From NCBI GenBank assembly GCA_964582235.1, contig CAZOQW010000001.1:76835-140834 (forward strand): a stretch of DNA of 64,000 bases. The letters run 5' to 3'. Source of the stretch: an uncultured Muribaculaceae bacterium. GTDB taxonomy: Bacteria; Bacteroidota; Bacteroidia; Bacteroidales; UBA932. The position numbers and the translations under genes were made by a program. This document shows positions 22,705-43,903 of this stretch, in pieces. The notes below the pieces were generated by a model. The model did no database searches. It was not told the DNA's origin and was given only the letters and a program-made list of their open reading frames with translations. Numbering within the stretch: position 1 is the stretch's first letter; each line of letters starts with the position of its first letter.

Positions 22705-22920
22705 ACATCTCTTGGTAAGAGATGTCTTTAAACCTCGCAAAGATATAAAAAATCCACTAACTGCCACATAAAAACAGCACAAAACATCCGGCTTGAGTCT
22801 ATTGGTATTGCTGTGTTTCACAAAATTCAAGGATTTGTTTCACAAACCCGAATTACAATTTATGCAAATGCTTCGCTTTCAGGCAGGAAGCATAAAGTTC
22901 CATCTCTTACCAAGAGATGT
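22705..22920. mobile_element. Invertible promoter segment (inverton), 216 bp, bounded by 20-bp perfect inverted repeats
   Basis: acatctcttggtaagagatg (22705-22724) and catctcttaccaagagatgt (22901-22920) are exact reverse complements; lies between the recombinase and upxY. Confidence 0.9.
22738..22768 (-). promoter_or_regulatory. Promoter inside the inverton (TGTG-N19-TATCTTTG) pointing away from the capsule genes (OFF)
   Basis: caaagata at 22738-22745 and caca at 22765-22768 on the plus strand. Confidence 0.75.
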
Positions 22921-23027
22921 ACCGGTCGGGACGAATTATCCCCCCCCCGAACTTTTTTGCAGAAATGCGGTAACTCCATGTGTATCAATCAGATTGACAC
23001 ACATGGAGGAATCAGGAAAGTGCCCAC

Positions 23028-23615
23028 ATGACCATTAACGTCTCAAAGACATTTCTTTATCCTATGAGCAACGGAATGCAAGCGGAACAAGACAGCCGAC
23101 AATGGTTTGCCCTGCGCGACCTTAAGCGCAGGCACGCCAAGTTACCCGCTTACAAAATGTTCGAGGGCTTGAATATGCGGTTCTTCACTCCCATGGAACA
23201 CAGGTTGGTCGTTGTGAACGGCAAACGAGTGGATCAGGAAGTGCCTTTCATTCAAGATTTGCTTTTCGTGAAGGACACGAGGGAACATCTCGATTCCATC
23301 GTGGAAAGCACACCCAAGTTGCAATACCGCTATAGGTTAGGAATGCGGAACACGCCCATTGTCATACCGACCGCCGAAATGGAACGCTTCATAAATGCGG
23401 TGGAGGCCAGCGAGCATCCCAAATTCTACTCCCCCGATGAGGTGACAGCCGACATGAGGAAACGGCAGGTCCGCATCATCGGCGGGCTGCTGGACGGACA
23501 GACGGGCACCTTGGTGACCACACGCGGCTCAAAGACCAAAAGATTGCTGGTGGAATTGCCTGCTCTATTGGTAGCTTCGGTGGAGGTCGAGCCGGAATAT
23601 ATCCAATTGGTGTGA
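23028..23615 (+). CDS. upxY: UpxY-family (NusG paralog) antiterminator
   Basis: WFALR, V.QEVPFI..LLFV, P.VIP..EM..FI, KOW-like VRIIGG.L.G..G; first gene of the locus; true start may be 23064 or 23076. Confidence 0.85.
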   Translation: MTINVSKTFLYPMSNGMQAEQDSRQWFALRDLKRRHAKLPAYKMFEGLNMRFFTPMEHRLVVVNGKRVDQEVPFIQDLLFVKDTREHLDSIVESTPKLQYRYRLGMRNTPIVIPTAEMERFINAVEASEHPKFYSPDEVTADMRKRQVRIIGGLLDGQTGTLVTTRGSKTKRLLVELPALLVASVEVEPEYIQLV

Positions 23616-34507: not shown

Positions 34508-35108
34508 GCATTATTTAAAGCGGGTAATAGATTTCATTCTCGTTCTTTGTGCCTTGGCTGTTATTTGGCCTGTGCTTGTTATAATAGCTATTTTGCTTCA
34601 TTTCGCCAACAAAGGTGCAGGGGCTTTTTTTTTACAAGAGCGACCGGGTAAGGATGGGAAGATATTCAAGGTCATCAAATTCAAGACTATGACTGATGAA
34701 CGGGATGCAGATGGTAATTTGTTGCCCGACGAAAAACGGATTACGAAAATAGGGAAACTGATTCGTTCTATCAGCATTGACGAACTACCACAGCTTATTA
34801 ATGTACTGAAGGGTGATATGTCGCTTATTGGCCCTCGTCCTTTATTGGTGCAATATCTGCCGCTATATAGCAAAGAGCAAGCACGACGGCACGAAGTACG
34901 TCCCGGCATAAGCGGGTGGGCGCAATGTCATGGACGCAATGCTATTAGTTGGACAGAAAAGTTCAAACTTGATGTGTGGTATGTTGACCATTGCTCTTTC
35001 AAAGTGGATATGAAAATTATATGGATTACTCTACTGAAAGTAATCAAGCGTGCCGATATCTCCCAGGAAGGGCGAGCCACGATGGACTATTTTGACGGCA
35101 CAAATTAG
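34500..35108 (+). CDS. Initiating phosphoglycosyl transferase (PglC-like, Bac_transf)
   Basis: KRVIDF, FLQERPG..GK.FK.IKFKTM, SIDELPQLINVLKGDMSLIGPRP, RH.VRPGISGWAQ. Confidence 0.92.
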   Translation: MYKHYLKRVIDFILVLCALAVIWPVLVIIAILLHFANKGAGAFFLQERPGKDGKIFKVIKFKTMTDERDADGNLLPDEKRITKIGKLIRSISIDELPQLINVLKGDMSLIGPRPLLVQYLPLYSKEQARRHEVRPGISGWAQCHGRNAISWTEKFKLDVWYVDHCSFKVDMKIIWITLLKVIKRADISQEGRATMDYFDGTN

Positions 35109-36075: not shown

Positions 36076-36739
36076 ACAATTAGTTTGTTTTGACCTCGAT
36101 GATACACTCTATAAAGAGGTATGGTATCTTAAATCGGCATTCAAGGAGGTTGCGAACTTTATCGCTCAATCCGGTGAATCTGATTCAGCTGCTATATATG
36201 AAGCTATGATAACATTGTGGGGCGAGGGTAAATCGCCTTTTCAAGAAATAAACACATTGCTCCATATAGATGTTCCCATTAAGGAGTGCCTACGTATCTA
36301 TCGGGAGCACAAACCGTATATCCATTTGGATGAAGGAACACAAAATACCCTGAAAGCCTTGCGAAAGAATGGTTGTACTATCGGGCTTATTACAGACGGC
36401 AGGAGCATAACCCAACGAAACAAGATAGAAGCGTTAGGTTTGCATACTTATATAGCAGAAAATGACATAATTGTTTCAGAGGAATTTGGTTCAGAGAAAC
36501 CTTCCGTACAAAACTACTTATACTTCATGGAGAAATACCCTCATGCTGCATTTACGTATGTAGGGGATAACCTTGCCAAAGATTTTATTGCTCCCAACTC
36601 ATTGGGTTGGAAAACCATTTGCCTTTTGGACAATGGAGAAAACATACATCAGCAAGATTTATCCTTATCCAAGGAGTATCAGCCAAATTTCTTTATCAAA
36701 GACATTATGGAAACTGTTGAACTGCTTAACAGATGTTGA
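36056..36739 (+). CDS. HAD-superfamily hydrolase
   Basis: FDLDDTLY, ITDG, EKP, YVGDNLAKDF. Confidence 0.85.
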   Translation: MMPFSCKQLVCFDLDDTLYKEVWYLKSAFKEVANFIAQSGESDSAAIYEAMITLWGEGKSPFQEINTLLHIDVPIKECLRIYREHKPYIHLDEGTQNTLKALRKNGCTIGLITDGRSITQRNKIEALGLHTYIAENDIIVSEEFGSEKPSVQNYLYFMEKYPHAAFTYVGDNLAKDFIAPNSLGWKTICLLDNGENIHQQDLSLSKEYQPNFFIKDIMETVELLNRC

Positions 36740-37395
36740 TAGAATTTAGTGGCTTGGATTGCGCCGGCAAGTCCACCCAAATTGATTTGCTTGTGGAATA
36801 CCTGCACAAGCGAGGGTATAAGGTTAAAACCGTTTGGAGTCGAGGTGGTTATACGCCGGGGATCACCTGGCTGAAGAATTTGGTACGAGGAGGGAAGGGG
36901 AAATCACCGGAGCAAATGTCTCAAGCCGAACGGGAGGCCAAAGCGAATGCAAAACCACAAGGCGGGAAGTTACTGTTGTGGTTGTCTATCCTTGACCTCA
37001 TTGCATACTGGGGTATTGTATTCAGAATATGGAGTAGAGGAAGGAAGGTATTATTGTGCGACAGATATTTATCGGACACATACATAGATTTCAAACTGAA
37101 ATATCCGACTGTATCATTTCAAAAATGGCAGGTTTGGAAAATTCTGGTAAATGTTTACAGAAAGCCAACTTACTCTTTTGTACTGACTATTACACCTGAA
37201 GAGAGTATGAGGAGATCAAGCCTGAAATTTGAGCCGTTCCCTGAATCGCAGGAGAAGCGGGAGAAGCGGCTTGAAATGTATTTGAAGGAAATTAAAAATG
37301 GCCGATGGCAATATGTGGTGGACTGCATGAGACCCATCAATGACATTCATCAAGAACTAAAATCGAAGATAGATGAAAATCTCGGAAATGCTTGA
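36733..37395 (+). CDS. Thymidylate-kinase-like P-loop kinase
   Basis: IEFSGLDCAGKSTQ, LCDRY. Confidence 0.8.
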   Translation: MLIEFSGLDCAGKSTQIDLLVEYLHKRGYKVKTVWSRGGYTPGITWLKNLVRGGKGKSPEQMSQAEREAKANAKPQGGKLLLWLSILDLIAYWGIVFRIWSRGRKVLLCDRYLSDTYIDFKLKYPTVSFQKWQVWKILVNVYRKPTYSFVLTITPEESMRRSSLKFEPFPESQEKREKRLEMYLKEIKNGRWQYVVDCMRPINDIHQELKSKIDENLGNA

Positions 37396-38500
37396 ACGGG
37401 AGGATTTCTACTCTATCCTGCAAGAAACACTACGGACTTACAGCACGCCATTGGGCTTCAACCCCGATCTCGTTGTGACGGAACGTAGCGAAAACAGTTG
37501 CGACTTATATATAAATCCCCGATTGAATGCCATATTGCCTAAGCGTCCGAGTCAGGCAATCATAGCATATCTTCAGACAGAATATCATGTCGGGGGCAGT
37601 TGGCCAAGGCGTATGGCTGTGAAAGGGTATTTGTGCTTGGCCACCCATTTTGTTAAACAATGCTCGCAACGAGGAATTCAAATAAAATATAAGCACGACA
37701 TAAGCAATCTGCTTATCTATCCATGTAACAAAAAGATACGCATATTCGACTTTGGAAAAAACATCGTTTATACTGTACTAAAACAAGGTTTCCCGGACAA
37801 TTATCTTCAACGGGAAATTCAATTTCGCCAAAGAGAAGCCAATGATTTTATTCCGGACATTATAGAGGCCGACAATGGCTTCTATTCGGAACAAATCATT
37901 AAAGGCAGACCATTGGCTCGCATTAACGATGGGAACTTTGTAAAGAATAAAAAAAGCGAAGCCTACCAACTGATACTATCGTTGACCCCAAAGGCAGAAA
38001 CTGTCAATACGAAAGAATACCTGAAATATCTTGCCGCAGAATGTGAGAAACGATTGCAAACGAAGCAGTTAACCATTGAATGCAAACAGGCTCAAGCGAT
38101 ATTTGATCTACTAATCAATAACTCCCCCGCTGAGGAAATTCCGATTGTGCTTAGTCATGGGGATTTCCAGTCGGGTAATATTTGGTTAGATGATGCAAAT
38201 AATGGTAAGTTGGTCATCATAGACTGGGAAACCGTAAAAAACCGAAGTCCTTTCTACGACCTGGCAGCACTCTTTCTGAATATGCGAAGAGACAAAAACG
38301 TTCAACGACTTTACGATAATATCTTGTCAGGTAAATGTGCAACGATGAGAGAATACGGTAATTCTGCCAAGTGTATCGGCACAGTCGTACTGGCAGAAGA
38401 ACTGGCTTATCAGACTGAAGAGTTGAGTAGCTTTCCCGGGAATATCGGAGTGAAAGAGTACAGACAAATCATAGAGCAATACATACATCTGAACTTATGA
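37373..38500 (+). CDS. APH/choline-kinase-like phosphotransferase
   Basis: Brenner motif SHGDFQSGNI, IIDWE, FYDLA. Confidence 0.8.
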   Translation: MKISEMLEREDFYSILQETLRTYSTPLGFNPDLVVTERSENSCDLYINPRLNAILPKRPSQAIIAYLQTEYHVGGSWPRRMAVKGYLCLATHFVKQCSQRGIQIKYKHDISNLLIYPCNKKIRIFDFGKNIVYTVLKQGFPDNYLQREIQFRQREANDFIPDIIEADNGFYSEQIIKGRPLARINDGNFVKNKKSEAYQLILSLTPKAETVNTKEYLKYLAAECEKRLQTKQLTIECKQAQAIFDLLINNSPAEEIPIVLSHGDFQSGNIWLDDANNGKLVIIDWETVKNRSPFYDLAALFLNMRRDKNVQRLYDNILSGKCATMREYGNSAKCIGTVVLAEELAYQTEELSSFPGNIGVKEYRQIIEQYIHLNL

Positions 38501-39732
38501 TTGAGCAGATATTTGGGAATGAGTATTTCAAACTGATGTCATACATCATCAGAGAGAAGAACACCGATGAAGAGATTGCTTATATCAAGCAATCTGTCTC
38601 CATATTGCAGTCCGAAGAGTTTTACGAGATAGCCAAAGAGCATGAGCTGGTAAGCACCATTGCCGTAAAACTAAAAAAGAAAACCGGCATTGAGCTGGGG
38701 AATGCTTGGATGAGAGAGGTGGAGGACACCCGGAAACGACTGTCATTTCTCTTCAATGCAGTAGAAAAAATAGGAGAAGACCTGAAAGCACACGGTATTC
38801 CCTTAATACTTTTAAAGAATGGTGGCATTGCCATAGACATCATGGATGATTTGGCTGAATGTCCTATGGGTGACATAGATATGTTGTGTCGCAAAACTGA
38901 TTTTTATGCTGTACACGAAATTATCTTGAATCATGGATTCCAGTTCAAATTTCGAAGTATTCATGAATTTGAGGATTTAGATGAAGCCTTTGCTGATGGA
39001 AGTACAGAATACAGCTACGAGGATGAGAACGGCGAAACGCTGTGGATAGAGTTGGCATGGCGGCCTGTTGCCGGTCGCTGGATACGCAAAGATAAAGAGC
39101 CGGATGCAGAGAGGCTTGTCGCGGACTCCCACGCGGCGAAGCGTTCATGTTGTCACGTCCTTTCCAACGAGGACAACCTATTGCAGGTCTCCATTCATAC
39201 GGCCAAACATTCCTACGTGAGGGCTCCTGGCTATCGTCTGCATTTGGATGTAGATCGCATAGTATCGAATAAAGAAATAGACTGGGATTTGTTCCTGCAA
39301 AAGGTGGATGCTGTAAATTCTAAGACTGCGGTGTATTTTTCATTGTATCTGGCACATGAGATTCTGGGGACAGATATACCAGAAAACGTATTGAACGCAC
39401 TAAGGCCAGCAAAGCGCAAGGAAAAGCGTATTATGAGAATGCTTCTGAAAGCAAACCTGATGCATCCACATGGACGCAAATTCTCAAAAGTAGGGTTTAT
39501 CGCTTTTCAGACGTCTCTGTATGATTCTTATAGGGATTTACTTGCTGTATTATTCCCTCCCGGCAGCGCGCTAAAGGCAAAATATAATTATCGCAGCAAT
39601 GTCCTCACTCCGTATTTTTGGCTGGTATATGCTTTAGACATGGTTGGGATAAGGAAAGCGAAGACAGATAAAAAGCAATACGCCTCCATGGAAAATAAAA
39701 TAATTTCAGAGGGGGGGGGAGTAAATCGCTAA
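38497..39732 (+). CDS. Nucleotidyltransferase family protein 1 (NTP_transf_5-like)
   Basis: LILLKNGG, PMGDIDML, IELAW, LLQVSIHTAKH, LHLDV. Confidence 0.75.
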   Translation: MIEQIFGNEYFKLMSYIIREKNTDEEIAYIKQSVSILQSEEFYEIAKEHELVSTIAVKLKKKTGIELGNAWMREVEDTRKRLSFLFNAVEKIGEDLKAHGIPLILLKNGGIAIDIMDDLAECPMGDIDMLCRKTDFYAVHEIILNHGFQFKFRSIHEFEDLDEAFADGSTEYSYEDENGETLWIELAWRPVAGRWIRKDKEPDAERLVADSHAAKRSCCHVLSNEDNLLQVSIHTAKHSYVRAPGYRLHLDVDRIVSNKEIDWDLFLQKVDAVNSKTAVYFSLYLAHEILGTDIPENVLNALRPAKRKEKRIMRMLLKANLMHPHGRKFSKVGFIAFQTSLYDSYRDLLAVLFPPGSALKAKYNYRSNVLTPYFWLVYALDMVGIRKAKTDKKQYASMENKIISEGGGVNR

Positions 39733-40700
39733 GCCATAAAGATTTACAGAAAATAGAAAGACTTGGAATATTTAAAATCTCTCGATTCGCTTATGCCAAT
39801 AAGACCTTGCCATTTGTCGCCAAATTAATGGTGGAAAACAACAGCAATACCGGCTTTTGGCTTCCAATTATTAAATCATACCAAATCCGCAATTCACTGA
39901 TAAAGGCTGCTCTTGAGGCATTGTTTGAAAAAACAAACAGCCAAGGGGTGAAGCACTTGTTTGTATCAGAAAATTTCGCTGCCCTTCTCAAATCAGGTAA
40001 TAACATAGGGTTGTTTGCTTCTGGAGATGTTGATTTGGTGGCAGACACAAAAGAGATGACTTTGATAAAAGGAGTGCTTGACGATTTAGGATATGAGTAT
40101 ACTGACATATCAGCAAACGGCAGTCTCTTGATTACTCATTGCAGGAATGATAGACAGTTGCCATTTGGATTTGTATTAAATATCAACTGGACCCTATTCC
40201 CGCGAAAATATTTACCCCCGATTATTACGACCTCCCAAGCTGTAGATTACGAAAAGCTGGAATGTCTTGGTGGAAGTATCAAAATACCGGATTTAACATC
40301 TTTGCTATATGTATGCTTGTTGCACACCTCTCTCCATTCTTTCTGTCGGAAACCGGGCATACGGTTGTATGTCGATATTGCCAATTTGCAGCGTAAATGC
40401 ACGGAAGAAGTCTGGCAAGAGGTATTGGCAAGAGCTTCAAAGGATGGTGTGTATAGAAGAGTTGTCACAGCTATTTCTGTGTCAAAACGCCTTGGTGTCG
40501 ATGGCATTCCGGGCGGTCTGAGTCCGAGTGGGAGTAGTGTCCTCGTGGCATTAGTGTGCAAAAAGAATGGGCTGCGATTAAACATGTCAAGTTCCGTTGT
40601 TTTCAGTTGTCTTGTGGAGATGCTTTGCGATGACAAAGGCTGTGTTCATTTTTTGAGTGAGCTGATGTCAAATACTCTTTTCAAAAGAAAAACCATATAA
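39688..40700 (+). pseudogene. Nucleotidyltransferase family protein 2, out of frame at a G9 tract (candidate phase-variable gene)
   Basis: Downstream frame is open from the G9 (39711-39719) through SKSLSHKDLQK...LFVSEN...SGDVDL...LLHTSLH...LYVDI; G10 or G7 joins it to ATG 39688 and to ORF 38497. Confidence 0.7.
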
Positions 40701-40712
40701 AACAACTAATTT

Positions 40713-41990
40713 GTGAATAGGATTTATTTATGTCTCGCCCACATGAGCGGGCAGGAACAGAAGTATATCAAAGAGGCGTTTGATACGAACTGGGTAGTTC
40801 CATTAGGGCCCAACGTGAACGGATTTGAAGAAGATTTGAAACAATTTGTGGAAAGTGATCCGAATGGCGAAAAGATGAATTGGACACAGACTCATGGTAA
40901 AGAAGTGGTTGCACTCTCTTCCGGCACAGCGGCTGTCCATTTGTCGTTGGTTGCACTCGGTGTACAAGCAGGCGATGAGGTTATATGCCAGTCGTTCACA
41001 TTCTGCGCATCGTGCAACCCCATCAAGTATTTGGGGGCAACTCCTGTATTTGTAGATTCAGAACCCGAAACATGGAACATGGATCCATCGTTATTAGAAG
41101 AAGCTATCAAGGATCGTATTAAGAAAGTTGGACGCAAGCCCAAAGCCATTGTGGTGGTCTATCTTTATGGTATGCCCGCCAAGATCGACGAAATACTGGC
41201 CATAGCTCAAAAATATGACATACCTCTTGTTGAAGACGCAGCAGAAGGACTTGGAAGCAGATACAAAGGACGGGTATGTGGCACATTTGGCGAATATGGC
41301 GTACTGTCGTTCAATGGCAACAAGATGATAACAACTTCAGGCGGTGGAGCGTTGATATGCCCCAACAAGGAAGCCAAACAGGAAGTCATGTTCTATGCTA
41401 CACAAGCTCGTGAAAGCTACACTTATTACCAACACGAACAAATTGGCTACAATTACCGCATGAGTAATATCTGCGCCGGAATCGGGCGAGGGCAGATGAC
41501 TGTGTTGAATGAACATATTCTTCATCATAAGCAACTTGCTTCATTATATGAGGAAATGTTTGCGAATATTTCGGGGATTACTTTTCACCGGAATCCATCA
41601 GAAGCAATAGATTCCAATTATTGGTTAAACACTATTACCCTCGACCCCGAACTACAGGTGAAAGGTGAAGAAAAAGCATACGCAGAGAAAGTGCAAGGCG
41701 CAGTGGGTGGCGCAGCAGGTGTAATGCACAGCACAACATCCACCCATACTGACTGCGAGCCAAACAACAACGTGGAAGCTATGCGAATGGCTCTTGATGC
41801 CGAAGGCATTGAAAGTCGCCCGCTGTGGAAACCCATGCACTTGCAACCTGTTCACAAAGAATGCCCAAGTTACGTGAACGGAGTTTCAGAATCTTTGTTC
41901 AAAATTGGATTATGTCTGCCGAGCGGACCTTACGTTTCCGTAGAGGATGCCATTCGTATTGTTACGGTAATTAAACAGCAAATAAAATAA
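40713..41990 (+). CDS. DegT/DnrJ sugar aminotransferase (PglE-like)
   Basis: SSGTAAVHL, VEDAAE.LG, SFNGNKMITTSGGG, GYNYRMSN, ESRPLWKPMH, CLPSG. Confidence 0.93.
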   Translation: MNRIYLCLAHMSGQEQKYIKEAFDTNWVVPLGPNVNGFEEDLKQFVESDPNGEKMNWTQTHGKEVVALSSGTAAVHLSLVALGVQAGDEVICQSFTFCASCNPIKYLGATPVFVDSEPETWNMDPSLLEEAIKDRIKKVGRKPKAIVVVYLYGMPAKIDEILAIAQKYDIPLVEDAAEGLGSRYKGRVCGTFGEYGVLSFNGNKMITTSGGGALICPNKEAKQEVMFYATQARESYTYYQHEQIGYNYRMSNICAGIGRGQMTVLNEHILHHKQLASLYEEMFANISGITFHRNPSEAIDSNYWLNTITLDPELQVKGEEKAYAEKVQGAVGGAAGVMHSTTSTHTDCEPNNNVEAMRMALDAEGIESRPLWKPMHLQPVHKECPSYVNGVSESLFKIGLCLPSGPYVSVEDAIRIVTVIKQQIK

Positions 41991-43903
41991 TGAAAGTATT
42001 TTCAAAATTTGCCTATTGGTATTTCACCAAGGGAGCTTTGCCGTATTGGTTTATTTTCATTGGTGACTGTATCATTTTCGTCCTATCCGGATTGTTTGTG
42101 TATGCATTCAATCATGGAACGCTGCTTACATTGCAAGCATTTTGGGCAGTATTGGCAACCCTTTCATTTTATCTGCTGTTTTACATAGTCGGTTTCAGAC
42201 TATTCCACACATATGCAGGAATCATACGCTATTCTTCTTTCAACGACCTGCAGAGGACTGCTTCAGCTATCCTTGTTGGATGCCTATTGTCCATATTATA
42301 TAACCAATGGGATGGTTTAAATTTTCTCCCTGTCGATCTATTTGTGCGAGACATCTTGGCCACCTCTATTCTGAGTTTATTGATTATGTGGGGAATCAAG
42401 ATTCTCATAAAGAATGTATATGATGCTACTTATCATACCTTACAAGCCAAACGAGTATTCATATATGGGGTAAAACATGGTGGGGTAGCCTTGGCTAAAA
42501 GTATCCGAAATGATAATCCCGCTAAATACATTTTAGCCGGTTTTGTTTCTGACGAAAAAGAATTGCGACATCACATTCTTATGGGGGTGAAAATTTATCT
42601 GAACAATGACACATTGATTTCAATGATGAAGAAAGAACGAGCGGATACATTATTAGTGCCTCCACTGAAAAGCCAAAGATTGAAAGAAAATGTTCAAATG
42701 GTTAATAATCTGATAGAAAACGGCATTCACATTTTGGTTGTTCCTGACGCACAAGAATTGAATGAAAAAGGAGAGATTAATCTTTTGCAGCTACGAGAAA
42801 TAAATATAGAAGACTTATTGGCACGCGAGAAGATTGAAATCAATATGGAAGTTGTCGGGAAGCTGCTTAGTAACAAAAAGATTCTGATTACAGGAGCTGC
42901 GGGAAGCATTGGAAGTGAGATCGTCCGTCAAGTAGCTCTTTATAATCCGACTGAATTGGTTCTAGTTGATCAGGCCGAAACACCACTACATGACATACGA
43001 CTAATGATGGTGCAAGATTTTCCTTTCATTAAGTCATACACCTTGGTCGGGGATATTGCCAATCAAGAGAGAATGGAAGAAATATTTCAGGCTCATAAGC
43101 CTGACTATGTGTTTCATGCGGCGGCCTACAAACATGTTCCCATGATGGAAGACAATCCAAGTGAAAGCATTATAAACAACGTTCTTGGTACTCAAAATAT
43201 AGCAGACTTGTCGGTCAGATATGGTATCAAGAAATTTGTACTGATTTCAACTGACAAAGCTGTAAATCCAACTAATGTGATGGGTTGTTCTAAAAGAATT
43301 TGTGAAATTTATGTCCAAAGTTTGGATAAGGCTATTAAGGAGGGGAAAATTAAAGGAGTAACACAATTTGTCACTACGCGATTTGGTAATGTATTAGGAT
43401 CTAATGGTTCGGTAATACCATTGTTTAAGGAACAAATCAAGAACGGAGGCCCGGTCACAGTAACCCATCCGGACATTGTACGCTATTTCATGCTCATTCC
43501 AGAAGCCTGTAAGCTTGTTCTGGAGGCGGGAACTATGGGGTATGGAGGAGAGATTTTTGTTTTTGACATGGGAAAACCCGTAAAAATCATAGATTTGGCC
43601 AAACGGATGATTCAGTTAAGCCATGCCAAAAACATTGAAATAAAAATCACAGGACTTCGGGATGGGGAAAAACTATATGAAGAGGTCTTGAATGAGGAAG
43701 AAACTACCTTGCCAACTTTCCATCCTAAGATAAAAATTGCCAAGGTACGTGAATATGATTATGACTCCATCCGCTTAAAAATTGACGATTTGATTCAGAG
43801 TAGTATACATGATGACGATATGCACATTGTTGGACAAATGAAAGCGATTGTTCCCGAATTTAAAAGCCAGCATTCAAAATATGAAATACTGGATAATACA
43901 TAA
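41990..43903 (+). CDS. Membrane-anchored NDP-sugar 4,6-dehydratase (PglF/CapD-like)
   Basis: N-terminal TM segments, [60 protein letters not shown]. Confidence 0.93.

Follow-up and report, generated by a model that had tools for sequence, protein, structure and literature searches.

A poly-G tract between two nucleotidyltransferase reading frames, a candidate slipped-strand switch in a capsule operon of an uncultured bird-gut Bacteroidales bacterium

Capsular polysaccharide loci of Bacteroidales carry invertible promoters, and to our knowledge nearly all phase variation described for gut members of this order is by DNA inversion. Poly-G tracts are known from the MeOPN-transferase genes, which are capsule-modification loci of Campylobacter jejuni. 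Two products can also arise from one locus by transcript slippage or frameshifting, as in Thermus and E. coli dnaX and in prfB. Poly-G contingency loci have been described for C. jejuni and its genus, where they make up a genus-wide 'phasome' (PhasomeIt, PMC6321876), and Helicobacter canadensis shows C-terminal phase variation with a candidate repeat-mediated fusion of HCAN_0660 and HCAN_0661 (Snyder et al. 2010, PMC2823697). Here we describe a run of nine guanines (G9) between the reading frames of two nucleotidyltransferases (NTases), NTase1 and NTase2, in a capsule operon of an uncultured bird-gut Bacteroidales bacterium. The locus lies on a stretch of 64,000 nt of a metagenome-assembled genome (MAG; C1:76835-140834), which is called the window throughout, and positions without a contig name refer to it. 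The closest described precedent is the C-terminal phase variation of H. canadensis, and a near parallel is offered by the poly-G genes for capsule modification in Campylobacter; our literature search found no paper describing homopolymer-driven switching in Bacteroidales. With moderate confidence we read the tract as a phase-variation switch of the slipped-strand type, by which the NTase2 domain is added or removed.

The tract occupies positions 39711-39719 of the forward strand, has an A on either side and is the only run of at least eight G in the window. It covers codons 405-408 of the 411 in the NTase1 open reading frame (ORF; 38497-39732, forward strand), near the 3' end of this upstream coding sequence (CDS). 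As assembled, the NTase1 ORF encodes 411 aa with a full PF14907 domain, and its frame ends with ...ISEGGGVNR at a TAA stop that is used in the G9 state (39730-39732, forward strand). When the tract was varied in silico, one frame in three joined NTase1 to NTase2. Alleles with ten or seven guanines are open through to position 40700 and encode 734 aa (G10) and 733 aa (G7), with the junction reading ...EGGGSKSLSHKDLQKIERLG... (in a longer excerpt ...ISEGGGSKSLSHKDLQKIERLG...). The G8 and G11 alleles end with ...EGG(G)E, the G11 form being ...EGGGE, and the products of G8, G9 and G11 measure 408-411 aa, with the stop at most four codons past the tract. An earlier note, made from the sequence of the window, had reported the G9 tract, the ending at GVNR and the continuation of the ten- and seven-guanine frames into the ORF at 39807-40700, and all of this was borne out by reading the sequence.

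The body of NTase2 (39807-40700, forward strand) consists of 297 codons counted from a TTG chosen by the ORF finder and carries PF14907 with an SGDVD motif. Between the tract and this body lies a stretch of 29 codons in the NTase2 frame (39720-39806, forward strand; SKSLSHKDLQKIERLGIFKISRFAYANKT), which is probably coding and is reachable only via a frame change at the tract. On the other side, the NTase1 frame runs through a tail (39661-39710, forward strand) that reads KTDKKQYASMENKIISE and is followed by the GGG of the tract. The two annotated 'genes' and the 74-nt 'gap' between them are a single interrupted reading frame. The locus contains an uninterrupted run of more than seven nucleotides inside a frame, the length of which in silico decides between a full-length and a truncated product, as in phase variation by simple sequence repeats (SSRs). 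The position of the tract near the 3' end, with alternative frames that change the C-terminus or fuse two CDSs, is that of C-terminal phase variation or SSR-mediated fusion.

As in H. canadensis, the poly-G tract is located late in the upstream frame, and its length alters what is attached to the C-terminus, including a fusion to the next ORF, while the upstream protein is not silenced. Unlike in H. canadensis, what follows the tract is an entire paralogous enzyme domain, untranslatable by any other route, the joint is conserved in a second lineage, and the host is a member of the Bacteroidales with intact MutS/MutL and not an epsilonproteobacterium. With Campylobacter the locus shares tracts of G8-G11 inside capsule-decorating genes. 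There, however, the tract is usually located early in a single gene and acts as a plain ON/OFF switch, whereas here a second domain is gated and mismatch repair is present.

Both NTases belong to PF14907 (NTP_transf_5), which we take to be a nucleotidyltransferase family with the Pol-beta fold. NTase1 matched the family over model positions 6-249 (E 3.7e-37, 128.7 bits) and the NTase2 ORF over positions 49-246 (E 5.5e-13, 49.5 bits), both above the gathering cut-off of 31.2 bits. Residues 1-388 of NTase1 match stand-alone orthologues of 388-393 aa, while stand-alone homologues of the NTase2 family have 360-370 aa. The SGDVD motif is invariant in the alignment of the latter family, and the invariant columns include D110 and D112. 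A sequence search of NTase1 against the PDB returned no match. The best structural matches of the AlphaFold2 (AF2) model (mean pLDDT 83.8, pTM 0.86) were ANT(2'')-Ia, MenT and LnuA, with a Foldseek probability of 1.0 and TM-scores of 0.58-0.67 when normalised to the target and 0.36-0.39 when normalised to the query. The predicted fold is of the small-molecule nucleotidyltransferase type, as in ANT(2'')-Ia and LnuA. Three metagenomic proteins (P0065, P0066 and P0067) carry an NTase1-like PF14907 domain fused to GT4 glycosyltransferases (794-797 aa) or to Bac_transf (619 aa). The family does enter natural fusions, though never with a second PF14907 domain among the proteins searched.

The tail in front of the tract appears to represent the first ~20 residues of NTase2, which would lack its own start codon and continue the frame of NTase1. 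This assignment is based on colinearity, length and divergence rate, and not on a profile score. The tail is missing from all other NTase1 orthologues found (~60 clusters and the loci L004, L006 and L008), and the fused reading is colinear with stand-alone NTase2 homologues, with 49 residues ahead of an LPF motif compared to ~50 in the homologues. The initial Met of the homologues aligns just past the point at which ordinary NTase1 proteins end, and the Gly-Gly-Gly of the tract aligns with a variable loop near their residue 20. Contig L003 encodes the protein most closely related to NTase2 (P0002, 51% identity), where it adjoins an NTase1 that is 77% identical to the one in the window. In comparison to this relative, the nonsynonymous divergence (pN) of the tail (0.335) resembles that of the 29-codon stretch (0.342) and of the NTase2 body (0.342), whereas the NTase1 core shows a value of 0.142.

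Several observations suggest that the 29-codon stretch is probably coding. It is open in the NTase2 frame both in the window and in L003, while the other two frames contain 2-4 stops, and 15 of 28 residues are identical between the two lineages, with synonymous changes such as AGA/CGT, CGA/CGC, TTC/TTT and AAT/AAC. Alignments of phmmer to stand-alone homologues begin 14-26 residues upstream of the TTG codon, and the AF2 model places two helices over the stretch (pLDDT 80-89). The 74-nt 'gap' that it fills is the largest gap in the operon. The stretch contains no ATG, GTG or TTG. As TTG 39807 is a Leu codon of the LPF motif and ATG 39688 in the tail is not conserved in L003 (see below), full NTase2 could be made only by read-through from NTase1.

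The gene callers annotate products of 290-301 aa, which would fit an independent start of NTase2 at TTG 39807 or ATG 39828, for instance by re-initiation past the stop of NTase1; the tract would then only trim the tail of NTase1. The TTG and 17 nt around it are identical in L003. However, TTG 39807 is not a demonstrated start and encodes the Leu in the LPF motif shared across the family, and this coding role accounts for its conservation. Moreover, a product starting there would lose ~50 N-terminal residues found in all homologues of ~360 aa, including the two modelled helices, and the 'gap' is open solely in the NTase2 frame in both lineages. We therefore regard an independent start as very unlikely. 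The earlier note had also pointed to ATG 39688, which does share the frame of NTase1 ((39688-38497) = 3 x 397), and had left open whether the ON product is a tandem protein with two NTase domains or a full-length stand-alone NTase2 starting at this codon. We rejected the stand-alone product, as ATG 39688 is ATT in L003 and translation of NTase1 would read through it anyway. The ON product should be the fusion, because this ATG is not conserved, the G10 frame reads straight through and the 20 codons before the tract match the N-termini of the homologues.

The locus on L003 has the same architecture, with G9 at the homologous junction (1623-1631) and a TAA directly after it. It is also out of frame, but here a fusion would need G8 or G11, compared to G10 or G7 in the window, which corresponds to a shift of -1 nt in L003 and +1 nt in the window. 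L003 is the only other lineage found with this gene pair, so that both known lineages with NTase2 have a G run at the joint, and the tract is kept at the homologous junction of a diverged relative. Members of ~60 clusters of NTase1 orthologues (66-83% identity) measure 388-393 aa and are devoid of tail, tract and NTase2. The loci L004, L005, L006 and L008 likewise contain NTase1 only; NTase1 ends with ...GIRKSK(K)(A) in L004, L006 and L008, and L004 is otherwise syntenic (kinase, NTase1, DegT aminotransferase). As the other NTase1 orthologues lack all three elements, the NTase2 module is a rare derived addition. A DNA search in 40 relatives did not find the homologous junction. The search for homologues with an intact or fused ORF, which the earlier note had suggested, thus yielded the same gene pair with G9 in L003, but no fused or in-frame homologue.

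That most orthologous loci manage with NTase1 alone, and that NTase2 evolves faster than NTase1 (pN 0.34 compared to 0.14), could also indicate a decaying fusion, in which an ancestral NTase1-NTase2 protein was knocked out at the G run, a site prone to mutation, NTase2 is untranslated or dispensable and length changes are neutral noise. All four observed alleles being OFF and the lack of an ON or fused form in the public data searched would agree with this. Nevertheless, NTase2 is uninterrupted over 297-301 codons in two lineages whose proteins differ by 49%, with the DxD and other family-invariant residues intact, and the 29 codons upstream are also open, in the NTase2 frame only. In addition, an unselected G9 should gain substitutions over such a divergence, yet both lineages keep at least nine uninterrupted G. 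We consider decay unlikely.

The same comparison bears on recoding, in which RNA polymerase slippage or a ribosomal frameshift would produce a set fraction of the fusion from a fixed G9, with a -1 shift on G GGG GGG in the window and a +1 shift at GGG-TAA in L003. Recoding would account for both lineages being out of frame at an identical length, G9; the window contains the all-G heptamer G GGG GGG, and transcript slippage could yield both +1 and -1 products. In L003, the stop directly follows the tract, and a stop-adjacent context favours +1 shifts, as in prfB. On the other hand, the two lineages need opposite directions (+1, not -1, in L003), for which a length-variable tract is a simpler explanation than a single, fixed type of recoding. 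A search for a frameshift-stimulating structure downstream gave nothing stable, conserved or significant (z-scores 0.67, 0.67, -1.33 and 0.07). The 91-nt stretches reached z-scores of 0.67 and 0.67, and a weak hairpin of 7 bp (-5.8 kcal/mol, z -1.33) is confined to the window. Furthermore, descriptions of transcript slippage in bacteria mainly concern A/T runs, the tract varies at the DNA level between G9 and G11 (see below), and long G/C tracts elsewhere in the genome are mostly located in promoters or at 5' ends, where recoding would be meaningless. The locus resembles dnaX and prfB in that a homopolymer or a stop-adjacent site could give a short and a long product. Their sites, in contrast, do not vary in the DNA and consist of A runs or of specific heptamers aided by stimulators, while here the DNA length varies, the shifts are opposite and no stimulator is evident. 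Hence, we judge recoding to be distinctly unlikely. Slippage at the DNA level fits best, given a tract of variable length in the DNA, the opposite shifts that the lineages require, the absence of an evident downstream RNA structure and a genome with tracts where recoding would be senseless.

Variation of the tract in DNA was found by comparing the window to Logan contigs. Contig L019 (run SRR7039257, 2829 bp, corresponding to window positions 39198-42024) carries G11. Left of the tract it shows no mismatch to the window in 513 nt and right of it two in 2305 nt, both in the aminotransferase gene. Contig L009, which comes from run SRR7039263 and occurs in two samples, matches the window without a difference along 1641 bp, including G9; this assembly is independent, but the sample may be the MAG's own source. 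Nearly identical genomes thus differ in tract length between samples (G11 in L019, G9 in the window and L009), and a length difference of 2 nt compared to only two substitutions in 2.8 kb indicates that the tract is hypermutable. Neither a G9 fixed across population and relatives nor an assembly error hiding a G10, both of which the earlier note had reckoned with, agrees with these public contigs, which give G9 and G11.

Homopolymers are error-prone, and three of the four frame-broken genes of the MAG would be restored by one added G, so a sequencing or assembly error with a fixed in-frame G10 as the true sequence deserves attention. However, G9 was reproduced in an independent Logan assembly from two samples, while another sample gives G11 and not G10. 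L003 stems from another study, and its frame is likewise broken but would need a deletion, not an insertion; the tract in an acyltransferase gene of the same genome (see below) stays at G8 in two further metagenomes. An error of this kind is most improbable.

A number of findings weigh against a switch. All observed alleles are OFF (G9 in the MAG, G9 in L009, G11 in L019 and G9 in L003), so only OFF lengths were seen in nature among 3-4 alleles. The chance of such an all-OFF sample is 0.2-0.3, with (2/3)^4 = 0.2 if the four are independent, and so few alleles were sampled because the organism is rare in public data. The view within the population is limited to Logan contigs from five bird-metagenome runs with a depth of ~3-5, which break at the tract. 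In the contigs of X1-X3, positions ~39658-39710 are uncovered and the right-hand contigs start exactly at 39711. Words spanning the tract are absent from all those runs, a longer query brought up no additional runs, and the contig breaks fit heterogeneity and low coverage alike. No fused protein with two PF14907 domains was found among 5.8 billion clustered proteins with the fused sequence as query, or among 1.84 billion representatives in an exhaustive phmmer search, and exact look-ups of the G10 fused product and of the G8 and G11 products found nothing. With a profile built from the N-termini of 72 homologues, the tail and 29-codon stretch of the window were not significant, as 215 of 500 shuffles scored equally well, while the 28-codon stretch of L003 was marginal in the same test (2 of 500 shuffles). 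Codon-position bias in the 29-codon stretch is weak, with 12, 9 and 13 differences at the three positions. Finally, MutS1 and MutL are intact in the genome, so slippage rates may be modest. The slipped-strand phase variation proposed in the earlier note thus retains the frame gate, the difference between G9 and G11 in the DNA and the tract kept in L003, but an ON length (G10 or G7) is missing among the alleles seen, which makes a role as a reversible switch likely rather than certain.

Under the slipped-strand reading, mispairing at DNA replication would alter how long the G run is, and this length would decide whether ribosomes on NTase1 carry on into NTase2. The latter would be a paralogous PF14907 enzyme that lost its own start codon and became joined head-to-tail to NTase1, with its first ~20 residues in the NTase1 frame, the G run as Gly-Gly-Gly and the rest in the other frame. 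Tracts of G10, G7 or G13 would give a single two-domain enzyme of 734 aa (ON), and G9, G8 or G11 would give NTase1 only, with an appendix of 20-23 residues (OFF). The NTase1 activity would remain constant while the NTase2 domain switches, presumably together with one extra or alternative capsule decoration. We infer that the change is reversible, that the fusion is produced and active and that the capsule is affected.

To place the tract in its genomic context, we counted homopolymers across the entire assembly, which comprises 1.77 Mb in 61 contigs and is 97.7% complete. Runs of G/C number 6397 at length 4, 878 at length 5, 27 at length 6, 2 at length 7, 11 at length 8, 7 at length 9 and 1 at length 11, whereas the lengths of A/T runs decay smoothly. 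Owing to this bimodal distribution, G/C runs of at least 8 nt form a separate class, and the tract at the NTase joint exceeds what chance would give. Seven of these 19 tracts are intragenic, others are located 2-79 nt upstream of genes and some in repeat-like intergenic DNA. Besides the NTase1-NTase2 joint (G9, C1:116545), three intragenic tracts leave their genes OFF as assembled. A G8 at C2:56060-56067 (L010:1061-1068) splits a C-5 cytosine (m5C) DNA methyltransferase after ...PPCQSWSVGG, and G9 would restore PF00145 over positions 1-323/324 (E 1e-93). This methyltransferase is a candidate for phase variation, judged from its reading frame. A strain with 91% identity in run X1 has a 1-nt insertion beside its tract. 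A G8 at C33:9251-9258 (L016:752-759) parts an Acyl_transf_3 gene from its start (MVSSKVSKNRVTPEIGG), which would be in frame with G7 or G10. Near-identical contigs in X1 and X2 also have G8 at this position; in a diverged strain, a 2-nt insertion beside the tract would restore the frame. On the reverse strand, a G8 at C5:29377-29384 (L013) separates a BACON lipoprotein from its signal peptide. Here, two upstream ATGs give lipoprotein signals, one with G9 or G6 (MVTRFSGGGLFVLSFNSC) and the other with G7 or G10 (MKTKWLLALAGGLFVLSFNSC), so that two of three frames are ON.

The remaining three intragenic tracts are in frame and near the 5' end of genes for two BACON lipoproteins (C4:15605 and C18:24396) and an OMP_b-brl_3 outer-membrane protein (C5:4771). 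At C2:58300, a diverged strain from another metagenome has G8 compared to G9 here, and small indels were detected beside two other tracts. Exact look-ups of the ON forms of three other tract genes found none. Across the genus, counts of G8 windows range from 0 to 52 per genome, and they are lower per Mb in other families of Bacteroidales. Loss of mismatch repair was rejected as a cause of tract instability, given the intact MutS1 and MutL. A T9 run (34625-34633), one of two A/T runs of this length in the genome, is located inside a Bac_transf (PglC-like) gene of the window.

The tract-bearing genes are a repertoire typical of contingency loci, and the genome resembles Campylobacter in its genome-wide tracts in surface-protein, glycan-modification and methyltransferase genes and in its bimodal run lengths. 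Whether the ~19 tracts constitute a Campylobacter-like poly-G/C 'phasome' on top of invertible promoters, despite intact MutS/MutL, is in our estimation evenly balanced.

The NTases are part of a unidirectional, tightly packed array of capsule genes (23028-43903). They are preceded by genes for Bac_transf, ATP-grasp and HAD proteins, a thymidylate-kinase-like protein and an APH-like kinase, the last two being a P-loop protein and an APH/choline-kinase-like kinase, respectively (36733-38500, forward strand). The cassette of thymidylate-kinase-like, APH-like and PF14907 genes (36733-39732 in the window) recurs in polysaccharide loci of unrelated bacteria, and this pairing has been noted beside a phosphoenolpyruvate (PEP) mutase (PMC8942020). 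In L020:4185-7098 and L021:4149-7113 the same three-gene order occurs with an NTase2-like enzyme in the third position. As such an enzyme is third in the cassette elsewhere, NTase2 represents a second cassette-type enzyme that was added to the cassette of the window. It is likely that NTase2 adds or alters one capsule decoration. Over the NTase region (39400-40050), the contigs of X1 and X2 show 100% identity to the window, but over a chromosomal region of C2 (L010:800-3600) the identity is only ~91%. This would mean either that the samples contain two strains or that diverged strains have the capsule locus in common.

Upstream of the operon, inverted repeats at 22705-22725 and 22901-22920 (aacatctcttggtaagagatg and catctcttaccaagagatgt) flank a segment that is a putative invertible promoter (22705-22920). 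The earlier note had placed the tract switch under a promoter inversion, and such nesting is plausible given these repeats. The locus would share with the invertible promoters of Bacteroidales the stochastic control of capsule structure at the same locus. Those systems, however, invert the promoter of a whole operon by site-specific inversion, whereas the target of the G tract would be a single enzyme domain within the operon. A C9 tract (22940-22948, forward strand) is located between the right inverted repeat, at a distance of 20 nt, and the UpxY/NusG-like gene that opens the operon (23028-23615), at a distance of 79 nt, and is possibly a second homopolymer control point. It is followed by gaacttttttgcag, and a G11 tract at C1:41681 is also trailed by aactttt.

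If the tract acts as a switch, the chemistry of the capsule would be set by two stacked random switches, an inverton for the whole operon and a poly-G tract for one modifying domain, which would multiply the surface variants within a clonal population. The poly-G switch would not silence a gene but attach a complete enzyme domain, and comparing the capsules of ON and OFF cells would offer a handle on the function of the widespread cassette of thymidylate-kinase-like, APH-like and PF14907 proteins. For annotation, the similar splits of this MAG in the methyltransferase, acyltransferase and lipoprotein genes should not be called pseudogenes before their tracts have been checked. If the genome does possess a phasome, its tracts would independently gate a capsule NTase domain, an m5C methyltransferase (possibly a phasevarion), an O-acyltransferase, three BACON lipoproteins and an outer-membrane protein. 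The NTase joint would then be a conserved 'domain-appending' switch that alters enzyme architecture beyond presence or absence, and repeat-driven phase variation would give the surface of gut Bacteroidales a second layer of variation that has not been described so far.

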